Shown piece by piece: positions 46-29,923 of a stretch of 64,000 bases of DNA. The translations under genes were made by a program, and so were the position numbers. The first letter of the stretch is position 1. The number at the start of each line of letters is the position of its first letter. Origin of the DNA: Dictyostelium discoideum (taxonomy: Eukaryota); NCBI GenBank assembly GCA_000004695.1, contig CM000153.2, positions 2,848,001 through 2,912,000 of the forward strand, read 5' to 3'. A model generated the notes under the pieces. It ran no database searches and was not told the DNA's origin. It worked only from the letters and a program-made list of their open reading frames with translations.

Positions 46-50
46 TCCTC

Positions 51-1418
51 ATGAATGAATGGATCAAGAAGTTTTGCCAAGCAACCAGCGCAAAAATAAA
101 CCAAACCAAATGCTCGCGTATCACTTTCAAATGGAACACCAAAACGCTATACACCGGCATAAAATCAAACGAAAGGTGCCTCGGCTTTGACTTCAACAAT
201 AAAGGTATCAAATCCAAAATCAATACAATCTCAGACAACATCAGAGCTAAACTAGTAACATGGAACTCAACTTCATCAACCTATATGGGCAGACTCATAA
301 TGGCAAAAACATATGCACTATCTCAGTTAACGTTCCACACTTACATCAACACCACACCACAACACAATAGTATTGAAAATAACATCGTAAAATTCGTTTT
401 CAACACAAAATCTAAAAACTCTCTTTCACTACAAAGAAGACAAAACAACTATATCAATGGTGGCCTAAACTTATGGAACCTGAAGACAAGAGAACTAGCA
501 CAGAAAGCATGGTTATTCGAAAGATACCTCCACCAAAGAGTAAGTAACACTCCTAGTTCATATATAAAACTGTGGGAAGAGGAACTCAAAAACAACAACA
601 ACAACAAAACAACAACAAAACAAAATCAACTACAACTACACTGGCAATGCAAGCAAGCATGGACCCAATTAAAAACTCCACAAAATAAACAAACACACTA
701 CGAACACCTCCCAAAATTAAAAAAAATATACGAGGATATGATGACAACTCAATCTCCTGAACACAACAAATTCATACCAACTCCTGGCCAAAAAGAAATA
801 ATGACCAAAATTAATAGCAAACACCTTCCATTTAAAGAAATCAAAAAAATAATAAACATGAAAGGTAGAGATCTATTATGGAGATACACACTGAAAGCAC
901 TACCAAAAATATACAACATGCCATGCCAACAGTGTGGGGAAGATGAGACCTCAGAACATATATTCTTCAACTGCAAAGCCCACATCAAAAACACACAAGA
1001 AATCTTCAACTACACCCTAACTAAGTCTGGACACACCACTCACACCTGGAATGTGAAGATTTTAAACCATCTACAAATTGCACTAGTAGCCAATTTAATA
1101 GCTATTATATTCGATAAAATCTGGCACAAAAGAAATAAACTCATTCACGATGAAAAAGAAATAATAATTCACAGACAACAAGTCATACGTGAACTAATTA
1201 AAACACAAAGAGCTGCATGGGACAGGACACAAGCGGTTATAAACAAAACATTAAGAATCAAATCAAAACAACGGCCAGAAGAACAAAATAAATTAGACTC
1301 ACTAATCTCGCTAAAGCTATTACAATTTAGCAGACAATGGAACTCACCTCTTCACGCAATAGAACTTCCTAAACATCTCAAAAAATACAATAATTCACTC
1401 AGTACTTTCTATAAATAA

Positions 1419-1482
<64 letters not shown>
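51..1482 (+). mobile_element. 3' fragment of a non-LTR (LINE/TRE-type) retrotransposon: C-terminal part of ORF2, then poly(A) tail
   Basis: A 455-aa open frame (51..1418) enters from the gap. Its base composition is much less AT-rich than host genes (CA-rich). It ends in a zinc-knuckle-like motif, CQQCGEDETSEHIFFNCKAH, typical of the end of non-LTR ORF2. It is followed directly by a 64-nt pure poly(A) run at 1419..1482. I am inferring the family; I cannot assign TRE5 versus TRE3 from memory. Confidence 0.55.
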
Positions 1483-1484
<2 letters not shown>

Positions 1485-1850
1485 CGGGGGACCCCAGGTA
1501 AACAAAAAATTTCCAAAATTTTAACTTTTTAAAAAAAAATTTTAAAAATTGAAAGAAAATTAAAGGGAAATTCCCAACCACCCCCCCAATTTTAAGGCAC
1601 CCAAAGGGCCAAAAAAAAAAAGGGAAATGGGGGGAAAAACCCAATTAAAAAAAAAAAAATTAAAAACCCGTTTAAACCTTAATCCCGAACCCGGCGGAAA
1701 AAAAAAAAAAGGTTTAAAAAAAAGGGGGGGAAAAAAAAAGGTTTTAATCAAAAGGTATTAACCCATTCCAAATTTGGGCCCCAAAAAAAAAAAAAAAAAA
1801 AAAAGGGGACCCTCCCCCTTTTTTAAAAACCCGGTAAAAAAAAAAAAAAA
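1483..1850. other. low-quality 'base-stutter' sequence; ORFs here are not credible
   Basis: Runs such as aacccgggggaccccagg, ccaaccaccccccc and gggccaaaaaaaaaaagggaaatgggggg show nearly every base doubled or tripled. The GC-rich islands are atypical for this genome. This looks like a poor read end next to the gap. Confidence 0.5.
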
Positions 1851-1983
1851 AATTAAATTAAATTGGGATCTAACATCCCAAGGAGAAGCAAATAATAATT
1901 GCGTTATCCAATTCAAAAAAAAAAAAAAAAAAAAAATCAAGAATATATTAATCAAAAGTAATTATACAATTCAAAATTCGAAA

Positions 1984-2023
<40 letters not shown>

Positions 2024-2135
2024 TAAACCAACCCCTCTTTTAGAGACCCTGTAAAAAAAAAAAATAAAATAAAATGAGATCTAGCATCTCAAGGAGAAGC
2101 AAATAATAATTGCGTTATCCAATTCAAAAAAAAAA
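1851..2135 (+). repeat. retroelement 3'-UTR module: two tandem copies of a unit ending in ...gagatctagcatctcaaggagaagcaaataataattgcgttatccaattc + poly(A), with an internal block ggtaaaccaacccctcttttagagaccctgt
   Basis: Direct repeat of 1851-1925 and 2055-2130. An inverted copy of the same block lies at 23310-23510. Confidence 0.6.
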
Positions 2136-3186
2136 AAAAGAATATATTATTATTAAAAATTTTGGAAGTTCCTTTATTTTTAGATTAAAAAATGTTTTTA
2201 TCATTTCAATTTTTTATTACTTTTTTTTTGAAAAATTATAATTTTCAAATGAAATGATAATTAAATAATAATGAAATACATTAATATGTGTGTTTAATAA
2301 AAAATAATAAAATATGGAAATGATAAAAAAATTAAAAAAAAAAAATAAAAAAATAAAAAATAAAAAATAACATTATAAAAAATATAAAAAAAACCATTGA
2401 TGTTCAAAATCATTAATTGAATTCCATAGATATTTTTTGATTAATATTAAAAAAATGGGTGTATACTATTTTTATTATTATTATTATTTTTTTTTTTTAG
2501 AAATTGAATTCCAAAATATCTATTATAATAGGAAAAATAAAAAAAAATAAAAAAAAAAATAAAAATTTTAAAGAGAGTCTGAGTGTGGGAAATTTAAATG
2601 TAATACAAAAAAAATTTGTAATTATTCTTTTAATTTTTTATTTTTTTTTTTATTTTTTTTATTTTTTTTATTTTTTTTATTTTTTTTATTTTAATTTTTT
2701 ATTTTTTTTCTATTTTCAATTTAAATTTTTTTTTTTCTTTATATAAATAGTATTAAAACATTAATTATAATATTTTATTTCATTTTATCTACATTATTAA
2801 AAAAAGGGTAGGTAATCAAATAACAAATTAATACTTGAATAACAATAATTAAATATCATTATTAATACCAAATTTATTTAATTTTATTTTTAATTTTAAT
2901 TTTTAAAAAAAAAATTATTTTATTTTTATTTTAATAATTAATTTTAATTTATAATAATTTTATTAAAATTTTAATTTAATTTTTTAAAATATATTCTTTT
3001 TTTATTTTTTTTTATTTTATTTTTTTTTTATTTTTTCAAATTTTTTTTTTTATTTTTATTATTAATTTTTTTATTTTTTTATTGCTCAATTTTAAAAACT
3101 ATATATTAAAACAGATAAGAAACAAACTATTAAAATCCATTATAAATATTTTATAAAAAATAAATAACAACAAAAAAAAATAAAAA

Positions 3187-11200: not shown

Positions 11201-14064
11201 AGAATCAACGTTTACTCACTGAAAATAAACAATTCATCACAAGTTTAAATGAGATTAAATCACTATTCAATTCAATTCAACAACAAAAAGAAACTATTCA
11301 ATTGGAATTCAATCAACGTTTACAAAGTTGGTCTCTTGATAGTGAAAAGTATAAAGAGATCATATCGACATTGGAACAATCAAATCAGAAATCAATTGAA
11401 TCTTATGAATCTAAATCATTGGAATTCCAAGAGAAAGAGAATCAATTCGATTCTCTATTAACAAACTATAATCAATTATTTAGTAAATATAATGATCTTG
11501 CTACATCCAATGAATCAAATAGATTAGAATTTGATCAATTTAAAAAAGATTCAAATCAATCCATTCAATCACTTGAATCACTTGAAAGATCATTAAAATC
11601 TGAAAATGATAATCTTTTACAACAATCTAATCTATTGAAATCTCAATTGGAATCAATTGAAAAACAAAAACAAGATCAATTAATACCAATTCAATTGGAG
11701 TTAGAATCAAAGAAATGCGAACTATCCAAACTATCTTCTCAATTCTCTGAACAAACTAAACAAGTGACTCAACTACTCATAAGTGTAGATCAATATAAAA
11801 TTTCAACAAATAAATTAGAATCTCAAATTAGCGATCGTAATGAAGAGATTAATAATTTAAAATTAAAAGCAATTGAAATCAATGCATTAAAAGAAGAGAA
11901 TATCTCACTCAAAGATCAATTAACAAAATTGAAAAAGGCTCCAAAATCTCAAACCGATCGTGAAAAAGATATGATAAAGAAAGAATTGGAAAAACTTCGT
12001 GAGAAATTCAATGCAATCGATGCAAAACTTAAACAAGCTATTCAAGATAAACAAACCATTCAATCTGAAAAACAATCATTGGAAAGAGAAATCAAAGACC
12101 TAAAGAGATCACATACCTCTACTGAAACTGAATTAGATAAATTGAAAAAAACTCATCTTGCTGCCGATGTTAAGTCAAAAGATTTCATTGCATTAAATAA
12201 ATCGGTTGAAATATTAACAAAATCACAAGAACAACTTAAATCTACAATCATAGAACTTGAATCAGACTTGTCAAAGAAAAATATTGAATTAGAAAAGAAA
12301 CAAGAAGAACTTGTCACACTCAACCAAGATAAACTTGAAAAAGAAAAGAAAACTAATCAATTAGAATCTGATCATTCAAGTGCTACCATTAAATTAGAGA
12401 ATTATGAAAATCAAATCACTCAATTAACAAGTGAAATCATTGATTTAAAGAGTAAATTTCAAGAATTTAAATCTGAATCTGAAAGCAATATCAAACAACA
12501 AGAAATTAACCTAAAAGAATCAAATGATCTAAATCAACAATTAACTAATGATAAATTTGAATTAACCAAACAATTATCTGATTTAAAGGTTGAATTTGAT
12601 AAATCTAAACAATTATGGTCAACAAGATCATCCGAATCAAATGATACAATTAAAGAACTTCAAGAATCAATCATTTCAAAAGATAAAGAACGTCAATTAA
12701 CCTCTGAACAACTTGTAAAATTAACCGATCAAATCAATTTAAAAACATGGGAATACAATGATTTGAATTCTCAATGCCAACAACTTACAAAAACTTTACA
12801 AAATGTAAAATCCAGTAACGAACAACAAGAACAGTCCATCGTATCACTTGAATCTCAAACATCTGCCAAAATTAAATCATTGGAACTAGAGATATCACAA
12901 ATTCAAGAAAATCATCGTTTAGAAGTATTGGAATTAAATCGTTGTAAAAATCAATTATCTGAAAAACAAACTCTAATGGAACAAGATAATATACAATTGA
13001 ATGAACGTATCATTCAATTACTACATCAAAAAACTAAACATGAAAATGAAATACTCTCAATGGAATCAAATATTATAGATTTAGAGAATCAAACCAAAGA
13101 ATTGAAATCAAAAATTGAAACTGCCCAACAAGATTTTGAAATTGAAAAGAACTATCATACCGGTTTAAATGAAACCAATACTACAACCATTAAAACAATG
13201 AATGAAGAATTAACTCGTTCAAATCAAACCATTCAACAATTACTCTTTAAAATTTCAAAATTGGAACAAACTTCATTACAAACTCAACAACAACAAGAAT
13301 TACAACAAGCAACCATTTCAGCTCAACAACAAAAACAACAACAATTAGCCGACGATCAAGAGAAACAACAACTCTATCAAAAAATAAAACTAATTGAAAA
13401 AGAATTGGAATCAACAAAACAAAAGAATCTCTATATCACTGAACAATTCACTCTAAAAGAATCTGAATATCTAGATACTATCACCGATTATGTTTGTAAG
13501 GAAAAAGAATTTGAAAAATCAAAAGCTTCCCTAAAAACTAGTGCTACAAAAATTCAAGCATTAAATGATATCATTAAAAAACTTCAAGAAGAAAAACCTC
13601 AACAACAACCTGTTGTTAAAGTTTCTTCTTCTCAAGTTGTAAATCAAAATGGTCAACCAATTAAATCAATTTTAAAGAAACCAAAATTAGTTATTATACC
13701 AAGAGAACAACTACAGCAACCACCTCAATTTAAAGAACTTACTCTATCAACTTTAAATAGTAATGATAGTAATTGTGAACCTGAATCCGTTTCAGCTTCA
13801 TCTACTTTAACTTCTTTACAATCAATCTCAAAGTATATTGGTAAAAGATCTGAACAAACAACTCTTGAACATGATTTAACCTCTTCAACTTTAAATCTAC
13901 CATTACAACAACAAAACAAAAAAGTTAGATTAGTAATCACTAAAAATAACAAAACTTCAACTGATAATTTAACAACTACTTCAACCTCTTTAAAATCAAA
14001 ATCATCATCCAATGGTGAAAACAAAGAAAATCAAAATAATAATATTATTATTAAAAATAATTAA
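8191..14064 (+). CDS. kinesin heavy-chain-like protein, CENP-E/kinesin-7-like (N-terminal motor, acidic tract, about 1,400 aa of coiled coil), 2 exons: join(8191..8383,8489..14064); possibly kif4
   Basis: The motor domain motifs are present: IRVRPLN, GQTSSGKTFSM (P-loop), SSRSH (switch I) and LVDLAGSE (switch II). Exon 1 ends at a GTAAAT donor and exon 2 starts after aaaaag. The frame matches ORF 8563..14064. A long D/E tract lies at about 9660-9900. The rest is heptad-rich Q/L/E/K coiled coil. Confidence 0.85.
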
Positions 14065-15214: not shown

Positions 15215-15550
15215 TATGTTTTAAAAAAAATAAAAAAAAAATAAAAAAAAAATCATGATTTCAAAAATAAAAAAAATCTAAAAAAAAATTTTTTAATTAA
15301 AGAAATACTTTTTTTATTTTTAATTTATAAAACAATACTTTTATTTTTAAAAGAATATAACAAAAAATAAATAAATGTTATTCCCTTTAAAAAAAAAAAA
15401 AAAAAAAAAAAAAGAAAGGAAAAAAAGTTTATAATTTATAAAATGATTTCTGGGATTTTTTTTTTTTTTTTTTTTTTATCGAAAGTGGGATAATATTTTT
15501 TTTTATGGAAAAAAAAAGTTTATTATGGTTGTGCTATTTGAGTTGGTAGT

Positions 15551-15567
15551 GTATGTATGTATGTATG

Positions 15568-15597
<30 letters not shown>
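15551..15597. repeat. (ATGT)n tetranucleotide microsatellite, about 12 units
   Basis: gtatgtatgtatgt... seen directly, between the FNIP gene and the alpha-SNAP gene. Confidence 0.9.
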
Positions 15598-15598
<1 letters not shown>

Positions 15599-15726
15599 GT
15601 GTAAAGTTTTAAAACTGATTATTTAACAAGTGAAAGAAGTTGTATATTATTGATTGAATCCTGGTTTTTTTTTTTTTTTTTTTTTTTAAAAAAATTTTTT
15701 ATTATTACTATTATTACTATTTAATT

Positions 15727-16850
15727 TTAAACGACAGATTCAGTTTCACGGTTGATGGTGTTTTTAATTCTTAATAAAATTGAAGTTTTCCATGAATCTA
15801 ATGGGCTGATTGAATTGAATTCTGCAACTTCATTTGTAAAATCTTCTACATTATTATTTCTACATGCTTGAATAATACCATCTAAAAGACGGCATTCCCT
15901 AGTTGAATTGAATGATGCTTGCATATCCTTATATCTTTGTAAAGCACGTTCTGCTCCAACAACATCCTTTTTTAAAAAAAAAAAATAAAAAAAATAAAAA
16001 ATAAAATTATTAATAATACTATTACTTTTTTTTTTTTTTTTTTTTTTTGTATATAAAATAAAATAATAATTACATCAGCAGCTAAATAACATAAACAAGC
16101 ACGAAGGAAATATTCTTTACAACCCCATTGAGTTAAATTATTATCTAAAGATGCAGCTGCAACTTGTTCATAGATTTCAATTGATTTCTCATAACGCTCT
16201 AATTGAGCAGAGAAGAGTGCAATCTTTAAAAGACATTGATGAGATGAAACTGTTGAATTTTCACCATCGAAATAATCGGATGCAATTTGATAACTTGCAA
16301 TTGCTTGATCGAAATCGCCTTCAGCTTCATATAATTCAGCAATTTCTTTTTGATGTTTGGCTGAAATTGCAAAACGACCTTCATCTGTGTAGTATTCAAT
16401 GGCTGCTTTCAAACATGTGATTGCATCTATAACATTTCCTTTTTTATAACAACCTGCTGCTAAAACATAACTTGATGCTGCATCATGTTTACTTGATCCC
16501 TTTAAAAAGCATTCTGCTGCTTTTTGAAATGCTGCACCTGCTTGATCCCCTGTTTATTATTTATTATTATTATTTTTTTAAAAAAAATAAATTAAAATAT
16601 ATACATAAATATATATATCCTCTACTTTATATTTCAATAGTTGATTGTTTTTTTTTTTGTTTTTTATATATATTTATTATGATTATTTACATTTCTTTGA
16701 CATTTTAAATAAATTTGCTGCCTTTGTATAATCTGAAGCTGCATCGTCGTATCTTGAAGAACCACCACCAAACATTTTAAAGAAGTTACCACCTCTTAAT
16801 CTTTTATCAGCGGCATCTAAAAATTCTTTAGCTTTTGCATCATCACCCAT
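15727..16850 (-). CDS. snpA: alpha-soluble NSF attachment protein (alpha-SNAP/Sec17), 3 exons: complement(join(15727..15966,16074..16549,16691..16850)); 291 aa
   Basis: MGDDAKAKEFLDAADKRLRGGNFFKMFGGGSSRYDDAASDYTKAANLFKMSKK|WDQAGAAFQKAAECFLKGSSKHDAA...KAAIEYYTDEGRF...YLAAD|DVVGAERALQRYKDMQASFNSTRECRLLD...LDSWKTSILLRIK matches alpha-SNAP along its whole length. Donors are GTAAAT and GTAATT; acceptors are aaacag and aaaaag. Phases 1/0 are consistent. The antisense ORFs 16151..16420 and 16472..16708 are spurious. Confidence 0.85.
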
Positions 16851-16933
16851 TTTATTTATTTATTTTATATATATATATCTATATACTATTGAAAACTTTT
16901 TTTTTTTTTTTTTCTAAAAATTTATGTGGTTTT

Positions 16934-16971
<38 letters not shown>

Positions 16972-17187
16972 AATTTTGGTTATAGTAAATGGTAAAAAAA
17001 AATTAAAAAAATAAAAAAAAAAAAAAATAAAAAAAACGATAGTGTGGTACGTGGTGAAATTTTAATTAAAATTAATTTGGGCGTTTGTGTGTAAAAATAA
17101 AATAAATAAAAATATAATGGTTGTATATAAATAAATGTGGATATTTATTGTGTTAAAAATAAAATATTTTATATATTTAAAAAAAGA

Positions 17188-17218
<31 letters not shown>

Positions 17219-17713
17219 TATAAAAGAAAAAAAAAAAATTAGTATTAATTATTAATGGTAAAGAATAAAGGTAGTTGAATACATACAAAAAATTCTATAT
17301 CGATTTGAGGAGAAAATAAAAAAAAAAAAATTAAAAAAAAATAAAAAAAAGAAATTTAAAAAAAAAAAAATAAAAAATAAAAAAAAAAATAAAAAAAAAA
17401 AAAAATAAAAATAAAATTATGTCACCAGACAATTTTTAGAATTTGGATTCTTGTTATAAATTATAATTTATTTGATTTTATTTGAATTTAATATATTTAT
17501 TTATAAAATAGTATATTTGAATAATTTTTAATTTTTTTTTTTTTTTTTAAATTTTTTTTTTTTATTTATTTATTTTGTTTTTGATAATTTAAATATAAAT
17601 TTTTTTTTTTTTTTTTTTTTAATTTTTAAAAAAATAAATTTGTTCTCGGGGGCCCTTGGGGTTTGGCAATATTTATTTTAAATTTGATGGAATTTGTAAT
17701 TGTTTTTTTTTTT

Positions 17714-17756
<43 letters not shown>

Positions 17757-17822
17757 GAATTTTAATTTTTTATTTTATTTTATAAATGAATGTTGGTGTG
17801 AAAATTAATATCTTTAGCGAAT

Positions 17823-17855
<33 letters not shown>

Positions 17856-17897
17856 ACAAAAGAAAATATAATAATAATAATAATAATATAAAATTAA

Positions 17898-19728
17898 ATG
17901 TGTACATTAAGAGCACTTTGGGTGTTAAAAGAGAATAGTAATGGAGGTACAGAGATTATATTATCAAAAAGAATAAATACAGTTGAGAATAGAGTTAGAG
18001 CATTATCAGGTTCAAATTATAATCCAATACCAATTGATAGTGAATTAATAGCATTATTTAATACAGAATTAATAAAGGATTCACAAGGTTATTCAACAGG
18101 TCAAACATCACCAATTTCATTACAACAACAACAACAAACACCTCTTCAAACACAAACATCATCATCATTATTATCAGCATCAATGGCATCGAAACAACAA
18201 AATCAACAAACAACTACCACAATCACTAATTTAAATTCATCAGCATTAAGTTTAGTTAAAGTATATACAAATACACCAAATACACATGTAATATCATTAA
18301 ATCAAGAAAGACTTTGGCCATTTATTTATATAAAAAAGAAAAACCTTTATTTTATAACTATACCTGTTATTGAAGAATTTTTAGTTTCAAATAGAAAACC
18401 ATCATTAATAGATTTGTAAGTGAATTATCATTATTTATTTATTAAATAAATTGAATATTATAATTAATAATTTTATTTATTTTATTAGACCATCAATAAC
18501 AGCAGCATTAAATTTTTTAGAAGAAACATCAATTTATATGATTGGGTTTTTAAATAAACCGCCACCATATCCAGAGTTACAAGTATTTTTAACCAATATA
18601 ATACCATTTGGTCAACCAATTGATACCAATTTCAATAATGTTAAAGCAATGATTAGACAAGGATTTCCAAGTGTTGAAACGTTTCAACAAAAGAGACCAG
18701 CATGGAAACCATTTTTACATAAAGGTAAACAACAATTGGATTTTATAATCAGTGAAACTATTCAATGTATATTGTATGATAATCCAAGTATACCCGATGT
18801 TTCAAAGGTGTCAGGATCATTGATTTGTAAAGCCGATTTAGAGGGTATGCCAGAAGTATCATTTTATTTACAACCAACCATTGCAGCCACTGGCAGTGGT
18901 GTCGGTGGTATCATTGGTCAGAATGAACCAGTTATCACCAATCTAGCTATAGATTCAACCGTTCAAACCACATCCGATATCAATATAAATAATAAGATCT
19001 CATTTTTTAATCCACCATTGGACCATTTCAAATTGCTATCTTATGGCGTTCAGGGTATAAAAGCAGTACCGTTAAGAGGTTTCTATCAAATGAAAGAAAC
19101 CTCGGCAAACTCTATCAAGGTATTAATTCAATTGAAATTAAATAGTGAAATGAATAATTCATTCGATTATTGTTTATTGAAAATTCCATTCAAAAATCGT
19201 AGTAACATCATACAGGTAAATGCTTCACCAACTACTGGTTCCATATTTATCGATCATTCTTTAAAGGCAATCATTTGGAATATTGGTCAAAAGTTTACTG
19301 GTCGTAATTTAGAGGTTGCTTTACCAATGGAAATTGTTTTCTCAAGTGTTCCAACCAATTTAATACCACAACCTCCACCTCAACCACCAACTTTAATCGT
19401 CAGTAGTAGTAGTGGAAATCAAAATGTAACCGCTTTTCCAAAACAAGATCAATCATTTCCAATCATTGATTCTTCTCCTTCCGATCAGGAGGATTGTTAT
19501 TCCCCTGATCCATTTTGTACAGGTTCAAACTCTTTTGTTCGTATTTATTTCAAAATTCAAAATTGTACTCTTAGTGGTTTGAATATTGATCCAAAGAAAG
19601 TGGTAATCTATCCAACAAATAAATTCAAATTAAATATTGAACGTGAAGTTTTAAGTTCAGAATATATCATTTGGAATTCTTTAGGTAGTTCAAAATATTC
19701 TTATCAACCTTCCTCCTCTTCAAAATAA
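17898..19728 (+). CDS. ap5m1: AP-5 adaptor complex mu subunit (MUDENG/AP5M1 homologue), 2 exons: join(17898..18415,18489..19728)
   Basis: Conserved blocks against human AP5M1: RALWVLKEN...SKRINTVENRVRALSGSNYNPIPID; ERLWPFIYIKKKNLYFITIPVIEE; QKRPAWKP..HKGKQQLDFIISETIQCILYD; CKADLEGMPEVSFYLQP; GFYQMKE...IQLKLNSEMNNSFDYCLLKIPFKNRS; IIWNIGQKF; DPFCTGSNSFVRIYFKIQNCTLSGLNID...YIIWNS. The GTAAGT donor sits at 18416. The tttattag acceptor joins phase 2. Confidence 0.7.
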
Positions 19729-20304
19729 AAATAATATCTTTTTTTTAAAATTAATAAAAAAAAAAAAAAAAAAAAAAAAATATGTGAAAATATCTTGTTT
19801 AAGTTTTTTGTTTTAAAACAAGAAATAATATATGTCAACCCTTTTAAATTTTAGAATATATTTTTTAACATTATCTATGATGAAATAGTATATAGGGCTA
19901 ATAGTTTCAAACTAAATCTTTACTTTCTTGGAGTGAACAACTTTTGTTTGACACCCCAAAAATAATTTGATTAACAGATTGATTATTTTTAGATGATCAA
20001 TTTTTTTTGGGGTTTTTTTGAGTGGTGACAAACCCTAGAAAAAAAAAAAAAAAAAAAACAGTCAAAATATCTTTTTTTTTTCTTTAAGTTTCTGACATTT
20101 TCATGGAAGAATTTGAAATTGTTTTTTTTTTTTTATTTTTATTTTTTTTTCAATTTTAAAAACCAACAATAACGCAGAAACTTATTTTCAATTTTTTTTT
20201 TTTTTTTTTTTTTTATTAATTTTAAACCTTTTTTTTTTCTTTTTTTTTCCTTTCTTTTTCTTTTTTTTTTTTGTTCCTAAATTTTCTAGATCTATTCATA
20301 TAAA

Positions 20305-20509
20305 ATGAAAACAGATTATGTTCCATTAAAAGAAGAAAATTCTTCATTCCACAATGAAAATTTAAATAATAATAATAATATTATCCATAACAATGTAAAT
20401 ACTATATATACACCTCAAATTGCAAAATTAGAGACACATTTTGGTGATGGTAATCAAACATTTGCAGCACCAGTTTATGCTCAACCATTAGCACCACAAA
20501 TGTTCCAAG

Positions 20510-20544
<35 letters not shown>

Positions 20545-20730
20545 TACTACACACAACATCAACAACCACAACAACAATACTACCCACAACAACATCAACA
20601 TCAACCACAACAAATGATGCTTCAAACTCCACAACAATATTACCCACCTCCAAGTGTTATTGTTAAAACTATTCCTGCTCAAGATGAATCTCATTTTAAT
20701 TCTTCATTGATTTTTTTTGTTCTTGGTGTG

Positions 20731-20770
<40 letters not shown>

Positions 20771-21036
20771 ATAATAATAATTAAAATAATAAAAAAATAA
20801 AGTAAAATAAAATAAAATAAAATAAAAACTAATTATTTTTATTAAATACATATTTGTTAGGTTTCTTTATTTCTTGCTTATGGTTAATTAATATTCGTTA
20901 CTTAAAATCAAGAAATAAGAATGCAAAAACTCTAGCCACTGTTTCAATTGTTATGTTTTTCGTTTATCTAGTTTTTGTTTTCATATTGGTTGTTGCATCT
21001 ACTAGTGTATCATATAATAGTCGATACTATCAATAA
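20305..21036 (+). CDS. Gln/Pro-rich protein with a C-terminal two-helix membrane hairpin, possibly CD225/dispanin-like; tentative 2 exons join(20305..20725,20861..21036)
   Basis: N-terminal Q/P/Y-rich region (QQYYPQQHQHQPQQ...YYPPP). The C-terminal part, FFISCLWLINIRYLKSRNKNAKTLATVSIVMFFVYLVFVFIL, has two hydrophobic helices flanking a basic loop. The splice (gtgtgt donor, tgttag acceptor) is the only in-frame join I could find. The family assignment is weak. Confidence 0.4.
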
Positions 21037-21432
21037 AAATTCTTTTTTAATGTCAAATGTTTGAAAAAATAAAATTAAAAAAATAAAATAAAACAGATTT
21101 GATTAATATATTTTTGATTTAAAAATTAAAAAATAAAAATAAAAAATTAAAAAAAAAAAAAAAAAAGGTAATAACTATTTAAGTGTCAAATTTTAACATC
21201 TTAAATTTTTTTCTCCTAAAAAGTAAATTATTAAAATTTATCCTTTTTATAGTTTTTATATAAATATGGAAAATGAAGATGCATTTGGACTTAAATTTTT
21301 AGGAATTTTTTTTTTTTTTTAATCTTAAAAAAAAAAAAAGAGGGATGCCAATTTTTGGTAAACTATTTAAAAAAAAAAAAAAAACAAAAAATTTAATAAA
21401 TAATTTTCTAAAAAGTAAAAAAAAAAGAAATT

Positions 21433-22475
21433 ATGGACTACCAAACTCAATTAAATAACTTTTTAAAAAAGACAAGATTTAATCTTTTACAATTTGATAT
21501 TCAAAATAACAATAATGACCCAAAAAATACTCTATACAAAGTAATAAAAAAAATTATAATACTAATAAAATAATTTAATTAAAAAATATAAAACTAATAT
21601 TAATTTTTTATTTTTTTATTTTTTTTTTTTTTTAAATTTAAAAGGCAAATTTAAAATTAATAATTGAAAATAAACCATTATGTGGAGAATCAAATTGGGA
21701 ATCATCAATTGAAGAAGCAAAAAATCAATGCTCTAAAAGAGTATATGATTTTTTGATTTCTGAACCTCATTTTGATATAAATAAACCACCAGAAATAGAA
21801 CCATTATTAAAGAAAAGAAATATTTTATTTTTTTCAATAATTCTTAACTATATTTTATTTATTGTTAATTTCCCAAAAGGAGTTTATTTCTTTCTACCAT
21901 TTTTTATATTAATCTCAATATTTTTGATAGTACCTTGGATATTGTATGGAAACAAGAGAATTTTAATGAGCACTGGAAATAGGGTGATTGTTAGAACTGA
22001 TAAATCATATGAAACATTTATTTTACCAATTAAATATGTAAATCATAGAGATCTCGTAATAGATATCTCAAATGGTAATTCTGAAAATCAAGATATTGAC
22101 CAATTAAACTTTTTAGCAATTGCAAAGAATAATATAATATTAAATTTAATTCAAACTCAAGATATTGGTAATGAAAGTCCAATTTATAAAATTGTTCCAG
22201 GTTGTGGACATAGAGTAAGAAAGTCATCAGGAGGATCATATTCATGTTTAGTAAAAATAATAAAAAATGGTAAACAGTTATATTATCATAGTACTGATGT
22301 TTCAGAGGATTCATTTTTTCAAACTTCAATACCAATTTTCAAAGTTATGTCAAAAAGTGGAGTTCATTACTTTCCAGAACAATACTCAAAACCAATTGAA
22401 ATGAATTCTTTTGAAAGGTATCAAACTATAATTTCAATTTTTTACAATTATTTAATTTGTTTTTTTTATTTTTAG
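21433..22475 (+). CDS. hypothetical membrane-anchored protein (paralogue 1 of a tandem pair), 2 exons: join(21433..21540,21645..22475)
   Basis: MDYQTQLNNFLKK...TLYK|ANLKLIIENKPLCGESNWESS...ISEPHF... then a hydrophobic segment FFSIILNYILFIVNF...FFILISIFLIVPWILY and a conserved C-terminal region (..GVHYFPEQY). It has a GTAATA donor and an aaaag acceptor. It is paralogous to 23896..24963. Confidence 0.5.
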
Positions 22476-22919
22476 AATAAAATAAAATAAATATTTAGCA
22501 GATTTTTAAAAAAAAAGATATTATAGAATAAGAAATGATGTAAAGTTTTAAAATAATTGGGGTTTAAATTATTTTTTTAAAAAAATAATTTATTTTTACC
22601 ATTTAAAATTGGATAGGTTAAAGATCAGAATTATTATACAGTGTATTGAGTATAGAGTTTACAATAAATTAATACATTTATTATAACCATATATTTTTTT
22701 ATTTATTTTTATTTATTTTTTTTATTTATTTTATTTTTTTTTATTTTTTTATTTTTTTATTTTATCTTATTTTATTTTTTTTTTTTCATTATTTATATGA
22801 TTAACATTGTTTTTAAAATAATTCCAAACCAAATTATTAACTATTTTACCAATAATAAAATTATTTTAATAAAATAACCATAGTAGTTTTATTATTTTGA
22901 TATTATTATAACACAGCAA

Positions 22920-23290
22920 AGAAAAATGAACCTTTAAAGCAAATTTAAAGCAAAGTTGATTTAAATTGGATTTAAATTGAATTTAAAGCCGCGTTTAAAA
23001 AATTCATTTTTAAGGTAATTTTTAAGGTAATTTTTTAGATATTTAAAAATGCCTTTAAAATTTGCTTTAAAATAAATTTTTAAGCAATTTTAAAGGTGAT
23101 TTTAAAGGTAATTTTAAAGGTGATTTTTAAGGTAATTTTTAAGATAATTTTTAAGATATTTAAAAATACCTTTAAAATTTATTTTAAATTAATTTTAAAT
23201 AGGATTTAAAGTAGATTTAAAGTAGATTTAAAGTGAATTTAAATTTCCTTTAAACATAAATTTAAGGTTTTTAATAAAAAAGATCTAATT
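22920..23290. repeat. complex imperfect-dyad repeat built from about 20-bp units of ttaaaggtaatttt / tttaaagcaaat and their complements
   Basis: The left half (aaagcaaatttaaagcaaagttgatttaaattggatttaaattgaatttaaag...) is mirrored by the right half (...ggatttaaagtagatttaaagtagatttaaagtgaatttaaatttcctttaaac), around a centre of tandem ggtaattttaaaggtgatttt units. It lies immediately next to the inverted retroelement module. Confidence 0.6.
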
Positions 23291-23309
23291 TTAGAACAAA
23301 AAATGGGGA

Positions 23310-23700
23310 TATTTTTTTTTTTTTGAATTGGATAACGCAATTATTATTTGCTTCTCCTTGAGATGCTAGATCTCATTTTATTTTATTTATTTATTTTTTT
23401 TTTACAGGGTCTCTAAAAGAGGGGTTGGTTTACCTTTTTTTTTTTTTTTTTTTTTTTGTTTCGAATTTTGAATTGTATTATTACTTTTGATTAAAACATC
23501 TTTTTTGTCCAAACTTTTTTCTAAATCTTTTTTTATTTTATCGTCTGGTTCGTGATTGATGTTTATGACGTATTTGAATTGTTTTTATCATTCAGGTAAA
23601 ATTTAAAAAGACTGAATTGTTTTTTCAGTTTATTTCTCATTTTCAACAGTGGTGAATGTGGTCAGTCTGCACACTAAAAAAAAAAAAAAAAAAAATTAAA
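23310..23700 (-). mobile_element. inverted (minus-strand) copy of the retroelement 3'-UTR module seen at 1936-2130, plus about 190 bp of adjoining element-like sequence
   Basis: 23321-23505 is the reverse complement of 1936-2110. It includes ggtaaaccaacccctcttttagagaccctgt, the gagatctagcatctcaaggagaagcaaataataattgcgttatccaattc block and the internal poly(A)s. There is no ORF, so it is a 5'-truncated or solo 3' fragment. Confidence 0.55.
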
Positions 23701-23895
23701 TCAAAATAAATAAAATTTAAATAGGTTACCCCCACACAATTATTATTTTTTCTGAATAAAATTTTTAAATAAAAATAATAAAAAAATAAAAATATTTACA
23801 CCAACTTTTCATTTTTTCATAAAATTTATTATTTTTTTTGATTTTAGACTTTTAAATACCAAAAACTGATATCGAGTCTACTAAACCAATTCCAT

Positions 23896-24963
23896 TTAAA
23901 ATGGATATCCCGAAAACAGAATTTGAAAAAAAATCAAAAAGGTTTATGGAAAAGATTGGTGTGGAATATAATGAGATGAAAGTAAACAATATAGAACGAT
24001 CTGTAGAAAACCAAAAACAATACATGGTAATTTTAAAATAATTTGATTTTTTGTATAAAAATTTGTAATAAAAACCATTAATCTTTTTTTTTTTTTTTTA
24101 CTTTTTTTTTTTTCAATAGATTGAAGTATTGTTTAGTTTAAGAGGCCGACAGTTAAGAAAATGTTCAGACTGGTTTGATTTCAAAGGTATCAGAAAATGA
24201 TTGTTTAAGGGTAATAAAAAATTATTTTAAAATTCAACCAAATTATATACCAAATTCAAAGTATGGAAAAAAGTTTTTATGTAAAAACAAAGAAATCATT
24301 TTATTTTCTTAATTGATTATCATAATGGGTTATTTAGAAAAAAAAGTTTTTTTTTTTATATTTCCAATCTTAATTATTATATTCCTATTGGGAATGATTC
24401 AATTTATAAAATATAAAAACAATGAAATAATTGAATGTTTAAGTGATAGTGTTAATGTAAGATACGATTTATCATACTACAAATATAAATTACCAAGAAA
24501 ATACATAAGAGATAAAGAATACTTAATTGTTCTATCCAATGGTAAACTAGAAGCTAATCAAGTTAATTCCGATGAAAAACTAGTTGTTGCCACAGAAGAT
24601 ATAAAATTAGATTTAGTAAAACTTTATGGTGATTCAAATGAATTTCAAACTTTTACAATTAAAAAAGAAGATGCTTTTAGAAGGAGAAAAATAAGGATGG
24701 GTTCAGAAAAACAATATATGGCATCAATGGTAATTACCAAAGAAGATGGTACTGTATTAACATACACTAACAATTCAATCCCTAAAAATTCTTTTAAAAA
24801 TTATAAGGTCGAAACTATTAAAGTCTTAACAAAGCATGGTTTTCATTTCTTTCCAACTAGTTTTATAGGAAGAAAAAAAATAAATAATTTAAAAAAATTT
24901 AAAATTATTTTCTCTATTCAATGTTATAGATTAATTTCTTTTATTAAAAATAAAATTATATAA
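23896..24963 (+). CDS. hypothetical membrane-anchored protein (paralogue 2), tentative 3 exons: join(23896..24021,24120..24186,24338..24963). The minimal model is the single ORF 24313..24963.
   Basis: The C-terminal 200 aa align with paralogue 1: NVRYDLSYYKYKLPRKYIRDKEYLIVLSNG versus VIVRTDKSYETFILPIKYVNHRDLVIDISNG, and ..GFHFFPTSF versus ..GVHYFPEQY. The upstream exons, MDIPKTEF...KQYM|IEVLFSLRGRQLRKCSDWFDFK|EKKVFFF, join in frame through GTAATT and GTATCA donors and caatag and tatttag acceptors. Confidence 0.4.
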
Positions 24964-25115
24964 ATACAACTCGCACATGCATTAATAATTTATAAAAATA
25001 AATAAACTACTCTACATAATATTAAATTTATTATTTAATATATTTATATTTATATTTATATTTATATTTATATATATTTATATTTATATATTTATATATT
25101 TAAATATTTTATTTA

Positions 25116-28085
25116 TTATGACATGTCTAAATCTGACAAATCATCATCGTCATTATCTTCAACAATATTTATTTTTGCTCTCTTTCTTAAATTGGTTTGA
25201 GGATTTGTCTCTTCTTCTTCTTCTCCTTCTTCCTCCTGCTCCTCCTCCTCATCAACTTCTTTCTTTTTATTTGATCTTTTCTTTGATGGTGTGGTATTTT
25301 GTTGGTTATTATCCTCTTCTTCGTCTTCAATTTGGTTCTCTACTTCTAAGAAAGAAAAATCATCATCATCATTTTGATCATCATCTAAATCATTATTTGA
25401 TGGTATTGGTGTTTTAGAAATGAAAATAAAAGAAATTGGATCTTGTTTTGATTTCAATTTCTTTAATATTGAATCATGATTACATTGTTTTGAAAATTGA
25501 TCTACATCTCTATAGTGTTCCCATTTATCTAAATGTTGAATAGTTTTAAATATTTCTATTCTTTTAATATTTATACTAGTACTAGCATTACTATTACTAT
25601 TACCACAATTACATTGTAATAAATCATGAGTATCTGAATTTGTATTTTCATTATAAGAAAAGATATCTTTTAAATCTTCCAATGAGAAATTACCACCATT
25701 ATCATTAAACTTTTTATCAACAATTGAATTTGAAATTGATTCTTTCATTAATTGTCTTTGATAAATCTTCTCTTCAATTGTACCTGTTGAAAATAATCTA
25801 TAGATGAAAACTGGTTTAGTTTGACCTTCTCTCCAAATTCTTTCCATTGCTTGAATATCGATTGCAGGATTCCAATCTGGATCATATAGAACCAAATGAT
25901 TACCACCAATTAAATTAATACCAACACCACCAGCTTTTGCAGATAACAAAAACACTTGATATTGTGATGACGATGATTTTGATGATGAAACATTTTGAGT
26001 ACTAGAATTAAATTTATCAACCAATGCTTGTCTTGAATCAGCTTTAACATCACCATCCAATCTAAGTGTATCAATTGATAATCGTTTACATAATCTCTCA
26101 AAGACGTCCAATGTTTTTGTGAAATTTGAAACCAATACCAATTTTTCATTCATTGGTTTTAATTGTTTAATCAATGATTCAACAAATAATAATTTACCAG
26201 ATTCATTATCTTGTTGTTCTTGAATCTCTTGATAATTTTCTAATGTATAATTATGTTTCTTTAATATATTTTGAATTTCAGTTTGTTGTTGTTCTCCTCC
26301 TTCATCTTGTTTGTTATTTAATAATAATAATGATGGTGAATTACATAATTTCTTTAATAATGTTATTGTTGAAAGAGAAGTTGCTGAACCTCTACTACCA
26401 CCACCTGATAATAATGATTTAACACTATTTGAATTCAAAATTGATTTATATAATTCAATTTGAAGTGATGATAATTTACAAAATATGATTTGTACTCTTT
26501 TTGGTGGTAAATATTTCTCCAAAATATTTGATTTTCTTCTAATGATGAATGGTTTAACCAATTTTGAGAGTTGAATTGATTTTCTAATACCTTCTGAAGT
26601 TGAAGTTGAATTTGGTGATTCTCTAGATTTATTAATTGGTATGATGAATGATTTTTTAAAGTCAGCTAAAGAACCTAAACAATTTGGATTAGCAAAATCC
26701 ATCATTGAATAAAATTCCACTAAATTATTTTGAATTGGTGTACCTGTTAATAAAATCTTTCTATCACATCTAACACTCATTATCGATTGAGTGGTCTTTG
26801 CATTTGAATTCTTTAAACGATGAGCTTCATCACAAACCATTAAACCACAACTCATCGTTTCCAATTCCTTTGAAAAGATTCTACATTGTTCATAAGAGAT
26901 AATTAATACGGGTTTAATCGATGTATTGAAATCATTTAAATTTGCTTTTGTCTCTTTTGTTAATGAATCTGTTAAAGTTGATGCAATCAAACGACCATTG
27001 CCAAACCATTTTTGAATTTCACTCTTCCAATTGTTAACCAATGTCGATGGTGTAACTATGATAGCCTTTTTTATTGTTGGTTTGCCGTATGGTGACTGTT
27101 TCAATAATGTCCAAAGTAAAGCTAAAGTTTGTAATGTTTTACCTAACCCCATTTGATCAGCTAAAATAGCACCACTGTATCCATTATCATTTGAATTACC
27201 CGTAACACAATCATAAAGGAATTTAACACCTCTTCTTTGATGAGGTCTTAAATGTCTACCAATATATGGATCCAATACAACATGAACAACTTTATTACCT
27301 TCTTCATCCAATTGACTTGGTGGTGGTGAATAAAATATTAATGCATCCTTTGAATTTGGATCATGTGGACAAACAATCTTTTTTGAACTTTTTTGTTCTT
27401 CTAAACTAGTATGACTTTTAAATTCTTTTTTAATTGTTGATTTATTAATATTTGTTGTTTGTTTTTCATCTTGTTGTTGTTGTTGTTTTTCCTCCTCTTC
27501 TTCTTGAAGTTTTTGTTGTTTTTTACTTAGTTTTCTAATTGTTGTTGTTGATAGTGATGATGATGATGTAGAATTTGAAACTAAAGATGACTCTAAACCA
27601 GTTGCTTTTTCAAATTCTTTGCTTGTAATTATATGTTCAATTAATACTTCTTTTGAAGAGATGAATACTTTTGTATCTGGTTTAACATCTTGTATATTCA
27701 CTGTTACACTCTTTCCATTCTCTTTACCACAATCATCATATAATGTAAATATTTTTTTATCTTGGTCATACATTAAATAACCATCATTATAAATCTTATG
27801 TTTTTTAGTTGATTTTGCGCACCAACCAATTTTATAATGAATTAATTCTCCATCATTAGTTTTATCTTCACTTTTATCATTATTATTGCTACTACTATTT
27901 GCTTTCGATTTTGTTTTTTGTGTTTCTATAGGAGATGATGATGATGATGTTGTTGTTGTTGAAGTTGTTGATGTCGTTGATGTTGTTATTTTTTTTGGTT
28001 TTGATGCTAAATGATTAATGCTAGGAGTTGATGTTGTGTTTGAATCTTTGTAAGGTGAAACAAATCCTTTGCTACTTTTTTTCAT
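25116..28085 (-). CDS. rad54: DNA repair and recombination protein RAD54 (SNF2-family DNA-dependent ATPase), single exon, 989 aa from ATG 28085
   Basis: KDALIFYSPPPSQLD...VVHVVLDPYIGRHLRPHQRRGVKFLYDCVTG..GAILADQMGLGKTLQTLALLWTLLKQSP...KAIIVTPSTLVNNWKSEIQKWFG matches the RAD54 N-terminus and helicase motifs I/Ia. It also has DEAH-like MVCDEAHRLKN, LLTGTPIQNNL, the helicase C motifs (LLSAKAGGVGINLIGGNHLVLYDPDWNPAIDIQAMERIWREGQTKPVFIYRL) and the C-terminal CNC...W.HY zinc-like tail. The first M in the ORF track is a TTG, so the true ATG is 30 nt downstream. Confidence 0.85.
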   Translation of the reverse strand: MKKSSKGFVSPYKDSNTTSTPSINHLASKPKKITTSTTSTTSTTTTSSSSSPIETQKTKSKANSSSNNNDKSEDKTNDGELIHYKIGWCAKSTKKHKIYNDGYLMYDQDKKIFTLYDDCGKENGKSVTVNIQDVKPDTKVFISSKEVLIEHIITSKEFEKATGLESSLVSNSTSSSSLSTTTIRKLSKKQQKLQEEEEEKQQQQQDEKQTTNINKSTIKKEFKSHTSLEEQKSSKKIVCPHDPNSKDALIFYSPPPSQLDEEGNKVVHVVLDPYIGRHLRPHQRRGVKFLYDCVTGNSNDNGYSGAILADQMGLGKTLQTLALLWTLLKQSPYGKPTIKKAIIVTPSTLVNNWKSEIQKWFGNGRLIASTLTDSLTKETKANLNDFNTSIKPVLIISYEQCRIFSKELETMSCGLMVCDEAHRLKNSNAKTTQSIMSVRCDRKILLTGTPIQNNLVEFYSMMDFANPNCLGSLADFKKSFIIPINKSRESPNSTSTSEGIRKSIQLSKLVKPFIIRRKSNILEKYLPPKRVQIIFCKLSSLQIELYKSILNSNSVKSLLSGGGSRGSATSLSTITLLKKLCNSPSLLLLNNKQDEGGEQQQTEIQNILKKHNYTLENYQEIQEQQDNESGKLLFVESLIKQLKPMNEKLVLVSNFTKTLDVFERLCKRLSIDTLRLDGDVKADSRQALVDKFNSSTQNVSSSKSSSSQYQVFLLSAKAGGVGINLIGGNHLVLYDPDWNPAIDIQAMERIWREGQTKPVFIYRLFSTGTIEEKIYQRQLMKESISNSIVDKKFNDNGGNFSLEDLKDIFSYNENTNSDTHDLLQCNCGNSNSNASTSINIKRIEIFKTIQHLDKWEHYRDVDQFSKQCNHDSILKKLKSKQDPISFIFISKTPIPSNNDLDDDQNDDDDFSFLEVENQIEDEEEDNNQQNTTPSKKRSNKKKEVDEEEEQEEEGEEEEETNPQTNLRKRAKINIVEDNDDDDLSDLDMS

Positions 28086-28246
28086 TATATTTTTTTTTGA
28101 GCGTTTGTAATACAAAAGTTTTAAAAAATAAAAAAAAAAAAAAAGAAAATGAAATGGAAAATTGAAACTAAAATAAAAAAAAATAAAATAAAATAAAAAA
28201 AAAAAAAAAAAATTCTTAGAAATATATTTTTTTGTCCAAAAGTTTT

Positions 28247-28279
<33 letters not shown>

Positions 28280-28755
28280 TTATTTATTTATTATTATCAT
28301 TGTTTTTTTTATTATTATCATTGTTTTTTTTTTTAGTAATATTCAATTAATTTGATGAAGTTAATGCATTGGTTGTTTTGGTGAAAAAAAAAAAAAATTA
28401 AAGAAAAAATAAAAAAAAAAAAAATATATAGATCTATCGGATTATTTTTAGATGATCATCAAAAAAAAAAAAAAAAAATTAAAAAAAAATTAAAATAACC
28501 CAAATATCGTTCTTTTTATTGTTATATTATTGTTATTTTTGTTCTGTTAAAAAAAAAAAAAAAAAAAAAAAAATTTAAAAAAAAATTAATTTAAATTAAA
28601 TAAAAATAAAATAAAAATAAAAATAAAATAATTAAATAATAATAAATGGTAAACAAAACCAATATTCTGTTTTTCCACACACAGCTGATCGTATTCAACT
28701 GAAAAAAAAAATTATTTTTTTTTTATTTTTTTTTTTTTTTTTTTTTTAAAAAAAA

Positions 28756-28789
<34 letters not shown>

Positions 28790-28793
<4 letters not shown>

Positions 28794-28958
28794 AAATTTT
28801 TTTTTTTTTTTTTAACCCTTTTATTTCCCCTTCCTTTTTTCCTCATTATTTTACCAATTTTTTTTTTTTTTTCTTTTTTCCCTTAAAAAAATTAAATTTT
28901 TGAAAAAAAAAAAAAAAAGGTTCTTTTTGGGGGATGTTTTTTAATTAATTTAAAAAAA

Positions 28959-28997
<39 letters not shown>

Positions 28998-29256
28998 TAT
29001 TATTTTAATATTATTATTATTATTATTATTAATAATAATAATAAAATTAATAAAAATAATAAAAATAATGGTGGTATTATTATTAATTTAAAAATAAAAA
29101 TTTTTTTTCCCAAAGGAAAAAAAAGGAAAAAAGGAAAAAAGGAAAAAAATTTTAAATTTTNGCCCCCCCTAATTTTCCCCTTAAAATTCCCTAAGGGAAA
29201 TTCCTTCCCACCCCTTTAAGGGTTTTATTCCGGTTTTTTTTTTTTAAAACCAAAAC

Positions 29257-29306
<50 letters not shown>

Positions 29307-29340
29307 CTTCTTTCTTTTTCATTCGGCAAACACAACAATA
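28790..29340. other. low-quality 'base-stutter' sequence containing an N at 29161
   Basis: aaccctttt atttcccc ttcctttttt cc..., ggaaaaaaggaaaaaaggaaaaaa, gccccccctaattttcccc, cccacccctttaaggg: doubled bases and odd GC islands. Confidence 0.5.
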
Positions 29341-29923
29341 AATTTTTATCCTTATTTCGATGAATAGTATTGTTCATCTTAAATTTTAAAAGAAAAAAAA
29401 GAGAAAAGAAAAAAAAGAAAAAAATAAATAAATAAAAAAAGAAAATAATATAAACGGTGTTTTTTTATTTTATTGTTTTTTTTTTTATTTTTGTTTTTTT
29501 TTTTTGTTTTTTTTTTTTTTTTTTGAAAACCAGTTTGTTTATCATATCTCTATATTTATTCAACCAAACTTATTTTTTTTTTTTATTTTATTTTTTTTTT
29601 TTTTTTTTTAATTTTTTTTTTTATTTTTTTAATTTTTTTTTTTTTTTTTTTTTTCTTTCATTATAGTAACGCACAACCACCTTTTTTTATATTTTTTAAT
29701 TTTTTTTTTTTTTTTTAATTTTTTTTTTAACAAACACTCCCACCCCTCATCAAAATCAACTCAATAATAATATTAACATATTATATTTTTTTTTTTTTTT
29801 AAATTCATTTTTTTTTTATACAGAAAAAAAAATAATAAAAATAAAAAAAAGATAATAAAAAACTTAAACAATTTAGATAAATATATAAATTATATATTTA
29901 TTTTTAAATTTTATCATAAATAA

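Follow-up and report, generated by a model that had tools for sequence, protein, structure and literature searches.

The window, that is, the whole 64,000-nucleotide stretch of Dictyostelium discoideum DNA analysed here, has a G+C content of approximately 20%. Its proteins carry N/Q-rich runs, and their matches are confined to Dictyostelium species. Two forward-strand genes flank a dense repeat array and an inverted retroelement fragment. The upstream gene clusters with DDB_G0285153 of D. discoideum AX4 and, as a first-pass annotation of this DNA had stated, the array lies between paralogous genes (28% identity, E=3e-21). The features of the locus, together with a retrotransposon near the start of the window, are:

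46..2139, + strand: 3' part of a TRE5-type retrotransposon (ORF2 C-terminus, zinc finger, 3' UTR modules, oligo(A))
21434..22475, + strand: upstream flanking gene of the DDB_G0285153 type, paralog of the gene at 23902..24963
22912..22926, + strand: left terminal inverted repeat (TIR) core, CACAGCAAAGAAAAA, its sole match in the window
22931..23270, + strand: left subterminal repeat array, ~29 TTAA-centred units with a period of 11-12 bp
23271..23311, + strand: unique internal segment of the element (ending in AGATCTAATTTTAGAACAAAAAATGGGGATA), delimited by alignment to full copies and cut at its right end
23312..23586, - strand: TRE5-type (TRE5-A-like) 3' UTR fragment, 5'-truncated, 97.8% identical to 11326-11596 of locus L007
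23587..23695, + strand: 89-bp unique segment followed by A20, within the lineage-specific insert and recognisable as neither element
23902..24963, + strand: downstream flanking paralog of the gene at 21434..22475

The tandem paralogs at 21434-22475 and 23902-24963 belong to a small family without a Pfam domain. Outside the D. discoideum / citrinum / firmibasis group no members of this family were found, and in D. firmibasis they are likewise arranged in tandem. Sequence divergence in the family is faster than in its neighbours: nucleotide identity to D. citrinum is ~69% for gene B, whereas the adjacent SNF2 gene reaches 87%.

The repeat array contains 21 TTTAAA motifs in 400 bp, whereas an average 400 bp of the remaining window has ~2. 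It also has the top TRF score in the window (256), which corresponds to a 105-bp higher-order repeat spanning 23006-23199. A two-unit pattern has eight matches in the window, all of them within the array, where 0.18 would be expected. The dense repetition placed at 22920-23290 by the first-pass annotation is thus real, with about 29 units. Its location holds, and the family copy runs slightly further, from 22912 to 23311. The unit length of 18-22 bp that had been given is wrong, the actual period being 11-12 bp. The array consists of 11-mers, of 12-mers in forward and reverse orientation (TTTTAAAGGTRA / TTTAAAAATRCC), and of the 105-bp higher-order duplication, laid out as follows:

22933-22999: 11-mers ATTTAAAGCAA and GATTTAAATTG
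23006-37: forward 12-mers ATTTTTAAGGTA
23040-75: reverse-oriented 12-mers
23080-155: forward 12-mers
23156-90: reverse 12-mers
23195-260: 11-mers GATTTAAAGTA

The left third of the array had been described as the mirror image of the right third. Both outer thirds are instead direct repeats of ATTTAAAG-type units, with direct matches of 67-77% and inverted matches of ~70%, and they look mirror-like because the TTTAAA core is palindromic. Real inversions of unit orientation are found in the central 12-mer blocks. Hairpin prediction, which had been proposed as a check, indicates that the array strand folds much more stably than its shuffles, with z-scores of -6.4 (DNA) and -5.9 (RNA). The absence of an ORF from the array is borne out, the longest open stretch being ~41 codons.

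An independent, chromosome-level assembly (GCA_054883475.1, locus L006) matches the window at 99.8% identity over 13 kb and is 100% identical over 22400-24400. The array is therefore not an assembly artefact. Elsewhere in the window, the 3' UTR copy at 1480-1920 has doubled letters and inflated homopolymers relative to the clean sequence at 11140-11600 of L007, and the reference assembly appears to be of low quality there. A run of N occupies positions 1-45, and a second, partial tandem 3' module lies at 1940-2139.

Orthologous loci were available from five other genomes: L001 and L005 (labelled 'D. discoideum'), L003 (D. cf. discoideum), and L002 and L004 (D. citrinum). The spacer between the paralogs is 1427 bp in the window and 412-652 bp in these relatives, and both the array and the retroelement fragment are missing from the orthologous spacer in all five. 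Homology between the window and the related genomes ends at 22907 and restarts at ~23723-23738. The insert thus comprises ~815 bp in the window, compared with 65-85 bp at the same place in the other genomes. As the genomes without the insert are 10-25% diverged from the window, the insert is lineage-specific but not necessarily recent.

Two side observations concern these relatives. The genomes labelled Dictyostelium discoideum (L001, L005) are only ~89-90% identical to window 15400-29500 over 13 kb, coding sequence included, a divergence far above that expected within a species. In addition, the paralog spacer has several 20-50-bp indels even among the insert-free genomes L001, L005, and L003, and it therefore appears prone to insertion and deletion.

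Searches for further copies of the array gave no result in the window (pattern search), in seven loci (k-mers and BLAST), in two transposable-element-rich loci of wild isolates, or in ~100 kb from other lineages. A scan of JGI metagenomes returned a single chance match, in a coding region, and translated array peptides had no match in a protein search. No second non-coding array of 9-14-bp units with mixed composition occurs in the ~165 kb of Dictyostelium DNA searched for one.

Copies are present in L009, a locus of an AX4-like assembly that was reached through a second TRE5-type protein match and lies on the same chromosome, 47-69 kb from one end. Window 22910/22912-23311 aligns to 8243/8245-8645 and 11363-11763 of L009 over ~400 bp at 98.3-98.5% identity. 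There, the array forms part of two complete units, L009_a (759 bp, 8245-9003) and L009_b (749 bp, 11363-12111), each bounded by perfect inverted 15-mers, CACAGCAAAGAAAAA ... TTTTTCTTTGCTGTG. These 15-bp TIRs occur in L009 as three inverted pairs (six matches, with 0.22 expected). The third pair encloses a 97-bp derivative at 10825-10921, which keeps both TIRs and little else. This miniature sits at a junction with TRE5 ORF2 sequence. In total, the ~190 kb of Dictyostelium DNA covered contains four copies of the element at 98% identity, within ~100 kb of AX4-type sequence. Single-copy status, which the first-pass annotation had named as an argument against mobile origin, is thereby contradicted.

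The intact copies reveal the architecture of which the array is one end. The reverse complement of the right arm aligns to the left arm across the TIR and the arrays of TTTAAAG(G) units, and both arms contain the same 11-12-bp TTTAAAG(G)-type units in direct and inverted orientation. The left arm is ~340 bp and the right arm ~160 bp, the difference being due to the 105-bp duplication. When the whole element is folded, its ends pair (z=-15.4). No ORF of at least 120 aa is found within the 749-759-bp copies. The window holds a single copy, at 22912-23311, which begins exactly at the left TIR, is cut at 23311, and retains the left TIR only.

When the flanks of the L009_b insertion site are rejoined, they give an uninterrupted TRE5-type 3' UTR, as in L007, plus two extra C residues, and L009_b is therefore interpreted as a precise insertion with a 2-bp (CC) duplication. 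No target duplication is seen at L009_a, and the 97-bp derivative and the window copy give no information on this point. A clean duplication is present in one of three complete copies, and 2 bp (CC) matches no classical superfamily.

Together, the near-identical copies (98%), the position of L009_b within a retrotransposon UTR, and the absence of the locus insert from relatives establish the element as mobile DNA. Because the window copy is one-ended, we infer mobility at the window locus from the other copies and from the absence of the insert in the outgroups. The element has TIRs at both ends, is small and non-coding, has near-identical dispersed copies, and is variably present between genomes. 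On these sequence features, it is classed as a non-autonomous TIR (class II) DNA transposon, MITE- or foldback-like. The first-pass annotation had left the array without a family and had offered the terminal region of a DNA transposon as one of several possibilities. That suggestion proves apt: the array begins with a 15-bp TIR and is the left arm of a multi-copy element of ~750-760 bp with intact copies in L009.

No transposase or autonomous partner was found. In particular, the idea that copies might flank transposase ORFs is not borne out in L009, where the ORFs beside the copies have no Pfam transposase domain. Membership of Tc1/mariner was considered and rejected, as the duplication is CC rather than TA, there is no transposase ORF, and the neighbouring ORFs lack a Pfam match. 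Separately, a transposon-rich region of a wild D. discoideum-type isolate (L010, 18588-19845) contains a gene with DDE_Tnp_1/DDE_Tnp_4 (Harbinger-like) domains. According to a review, the transposases of this species' DNA transposons bear no recognisable resemblance to known ones.

The right arm of the intact copies (L009 8849-8924 and 11968-12043) also forms a near-perfect hairpin with a 38-bp stem. Its covariance matches to miRNA families of MITE origin stay below threshold: mir-548 scores 42.6 bits, where the gathering score is 90. The match to the Rfam mir-548 family reflects the shape of the hairpin rather than membership. If transcribed, the hairpin would plausibly be a Dicer substrate.

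The centre of the element carries a further module. Full copies run 35 more bases past the point at which the window copy is cut, and an A-box-like motif, TGGTGTAATGG, follows. A B-box-like motif, GGATCGAATCC, lies 43 nt downstream of it (L009 8731-41 and 11848-58) and is followed by a T-run. The 43-nt spacing between the boxes is canonical and is present in both full copies, and a second B-box-like motif occurs on the opposite strand. ARAGORN finds no tRNA in L009, and Rfam gives no tRNA match at E<=1 in the element centre. As neither program calls a tRNA, the centre reads as a tRNA-like promoter module rather than a tRNA gene, and its motifs and their spacing identify it as a predicted RNA polymerase III promoter module. 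The window copy has neither this module nor the right-arm hairpin.

The element's neighbour in the window can be understood with reference to this module. As had been annotated, the array abuts an inverted retroelement fragment (23312-23586, minus strand). The A13 tail of the fragment, which is T13 at 23312-23324 on the plus strand, abuts the element, and its 5' end points to the right. With the element at 46..2139 as reference copy, the fragment is 80-89% identical, in inverted orientation, to window 1652-2138. The ORF2 C-terminus of the reference element has a zinc-finger motif (CX2C...HX4C) and homologs with a reverse transcriptase (PF00078). The copy in L007 lies ~52-58 bp from the 5' end of a tRNA-Met gene, head to head. 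ORF2, the zinc finger, the oligo(A) 3' UTR, and the tRNA-proximal head-to-head position are the signature of TRE5. The designation 'TRE5-A-like' assigns the subfamily by these features rather than by consensus.

TRE5-A integrates ~48-50 bp upstream of its targets, whether these are tRNA genes or bare A/B-box loci, and its 5' end always faces the target (PMC5391098). The reported range of distances is 37-90 bp (PMC5006619), and target duplications are 10-16 bp (PMC9012585). In DDT-B, a DNA transposon with an internal A/B-box motif, the reported distance from that motif to a TRE5-A copy upstream is 46 bp (PMC9012585). The TRE5 tail in the window is joined to the element 35 nt before the module's inferred +1; with 10-16 bp added, the distance becomes 45-51 bp. 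The 5' end of the fragment faces the predicted site of the module. In orientation and in this predicted distance of ~45-51 bp, the window fragment resembles TRE5-A copies at tRNA genes and A/B-box loci, as does the L007 copy in its head-to-head position beside tRNA-Met. Unlike such loci, the window lacks the module, has no B box near the insert, and shows no visible target duplication flanking the fragment. As judged from the sequence, the position and orientation of the fragment fit canonical TRE5-A targeting. The suggestion that the array is a preferred landing site of the retroelement thus stands in part: the fragment does sit at a TRE5-A-type position, but the beacon would be the inner A/B-box module and not the array. 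Literature text searches with the retroelement end sequence and TTTAAA yielded nothing useful.

To the right of the fragment, the 89-bp segment and its A20 (23587-23695) have no match in any sequence compared and no significant alignment to the element centre. Loss of the module from the window copy is therefore postulated as a secondary event. The 89-bp segment includes a weak A-box-like motif, CAGTGGTGAATGTGG. Its minus strand resembles an intron end, a short exon end, and an AATAAA signal. A partial tRNA gene at 23649-23675 was considered and rejected, as ARAGORN and Rfam gave no support, a nearby B box is absent, and there is no significant similarity to the element centre. A reading of the whole insert as one plus-strand retrotransposition, with A20 as its end and GAAAAATSAA as its duplication, was also dropped: the array is part of a TIR element, and the proposed duplication is weak.

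We consider it highly probable that the locus holds a truncated copy of a non-autonomous TIR transposon of ~750-760 bp, multi-copy in the AX4-type genome, with the array as its left subterminal repeat arm, and that the tRNA-like module of this transposon accounts for the TRE5 neighbour. By analogy with other TIR elements such as En/Spm, the 11-12-bp units would be transposase-binding subterminal repeats, and they are probably binding sites. An autonomous relative could supply a transposase in trans, which would recognise both element ends and pair them through these units. The hairpin potential of the inverted blocks is probably a by-product. A TRE5-type element would then have integrated upstream of the A/B-box module, with its 5' end facing the module, and would lie beside the array because the transposon carries that module. 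The module and the right arm would have been lost from the window copy afterwards.

Several alternatives need to be weighed against this explanation. The nearest of them keeps the transposon but takes the ~760-bp element to be an uncatalogued MITE, whose Pol III module would act as a TRE5 beacon (a safe haven) and might also drive transcription of hairpin RNA into a small-RNA pathway. We regard this combination as rather unlikely. An element of 760 bp with several copies in the reference strain has very likely been catalogued already, and the chance that it is uncatalogued, taken alone, is small.

Less probable still, and in our assessment quite improbable, is that the array is a functional host element, either a small-RNA hairpin locus or a bent-DNA, origin, or segregation element under selection. 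The strong hairpin potential of the array and of the whole element (z=-6.4, -5.9, and -15.4) is compatible with such a role, as are the near-perfect 38-bp stem in the right arm of full copies, with its sub-threshold matches to MITE-derived miRNA families, and the known miRNAs derived from thug-S in D. discoideum (PMC4894637, PMC6161686). Against this, five related genomes lack the array at the orthologous site, nothing pointing to a promoter was found, and the window copy has neither the Pol III module nor the right-arm hairpin. Six short array motifs do not occur in the supplementary files compared for the two miRNA papers (PMC4894637, PMC6161686), a crude comparison confined to those files. 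The replication or segregation element and the recombination hotspot that had been proposed in the first-pass annotation are likewise without support.

It is very improbable that the array is an AT-rich minisatellite, made in place by slippage and fold-back copying without mobility. Neighbouring units are most alike, which is typical of slippage, as is the 105-bp higher-order duplication, and this process has surely shaped the arm in the history of the family. Moreover, the intergenic region is an indel hotspot among the relatives, and an ancestral 12-mer, ATTTTTAAGTTG, lies near the junction. An origin in place was nevertheless rejected upon the finding of TIR-bearing copies in L009, where the same 400 bp occurs twice at 98% identity inside TIR-bounded units, including the non-repetitive 15-bp end and the 41-bp unique segment. 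An LTR, or a module within the 3' UTR of some TRE5 subfamily, has just as little to recommend it. In its favour, the two L009 copies are in direct orientation, 3.1 kb apart, and flank a TRE5-like ORF2 fragment, and L009_b directly follows the stop codon and A-run of an ORF2. Against it, every copy is paired with an inverted end of its own ~750 bp away, rejoining the L009_b flanks gives a TRE5 3' UTR as in the array-free L007, poly(A) and TG..CA LTR ends are lacking, and the TRE5 fragment in the window is inverted and tail-joined, unlike the arrangement at L009_b.

The array is thus an ordinary mobile-element remnant. Being resolved as transposon debris, it does not merit pursuit as a novel regulatory or replication element. 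The association between the transposon and TRE5 is of modest broader relevance: a tRNA-like A/B-box module makes the DNA transposon carrying it a target for retrotransposons directed to tRNA genes. The element adds an example to the single published case, DDT-B, and it bears on what the A/B-box motif does for a transposon. At the locus itself, the insert triples the paralog spacer in the laboratory-strain lineage only, and the promoter of the downstream gene may therefore be affected.

Among known systems, the closest candidates are the DNA transposons of D. discoideum itself. A 2001 catalogue of the repeats of this species (Glockner et al., as cited in PMC5633606) distinguishes the Tdd, DDT, and thug DNA transposons. 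The DDT and thug families, both putative DNA transposons, include DDT-A, DDT-B, DDT-S, thug-S, and thug-T. The element resembles both DDT and thug in that it is multi-copy in the same species. DDT elements are enriched at centromeres (PMC2665215). The L009 copies, 47-69 kb from a chromosome end, may be pericentromeric if this is the centromere end. As described for DDT-B in the text of PMC9012585, there is an A/B-box motif inside the full element, and a TRE5 fragment lies at the predicted upstream site in the window copy. With thug-S, from which miRNA-like hairpins (PMC4894637) and transposon-derived miRNAs (PMC4894637, PMC6161686) have been reported, it shares hairpin potential. The full element, which is likened to the DDT and thug elements by description and not by consensus, is ~760 bp and has no ORF. 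It would have to be a short non-autonomous member, such as DDT-S or thug-T, or have only its termini in common with DDT-B. On this comparison, the element is probably a member of a catalogued D. discoideum family, DDT or thug. The A/B-box report for DDT-B makes DDT the likeliest candidate, and the place of L009 near a chromosome end also points that way.

More distant parallels exist outside Dictyostelium. Foldback elements and MITEs include FB of Drosophila and human MADE1, the source of mir-548. Like these, the element is small and non-coding, with inverted arms of tandem short subrepeats and strong hairpin potential. It differs in that its arms are unequal and are separated by ~250 bp of unique sequence with tRNA-like motifs. 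Plant transposons of the CACTA (En/Spm) and Ac/Ds types have subterminal repeat regions, and in En/Spm, motifs of ~12 bp bind the element-encoded TNPA. The organisation of the ends is comparable, with unequal subterminal regions of a few hundred bp and a motif of ~12 bp in both orientations. The short TIRs are also alike in character (CACAGCAAAGAAAAA in the Dictyostelium element, CACTACAAGAAAA in En/Spm). In contrast to CACTA elements, however, the TIR begins with CACAG rather than CACTA, and the one clean duplication measures 2 bp, not 3 bp. The likeness to En/Spm and Ac/Ds does not extend to sequence homology, nor does the Dictyostelium element have a known transposase.
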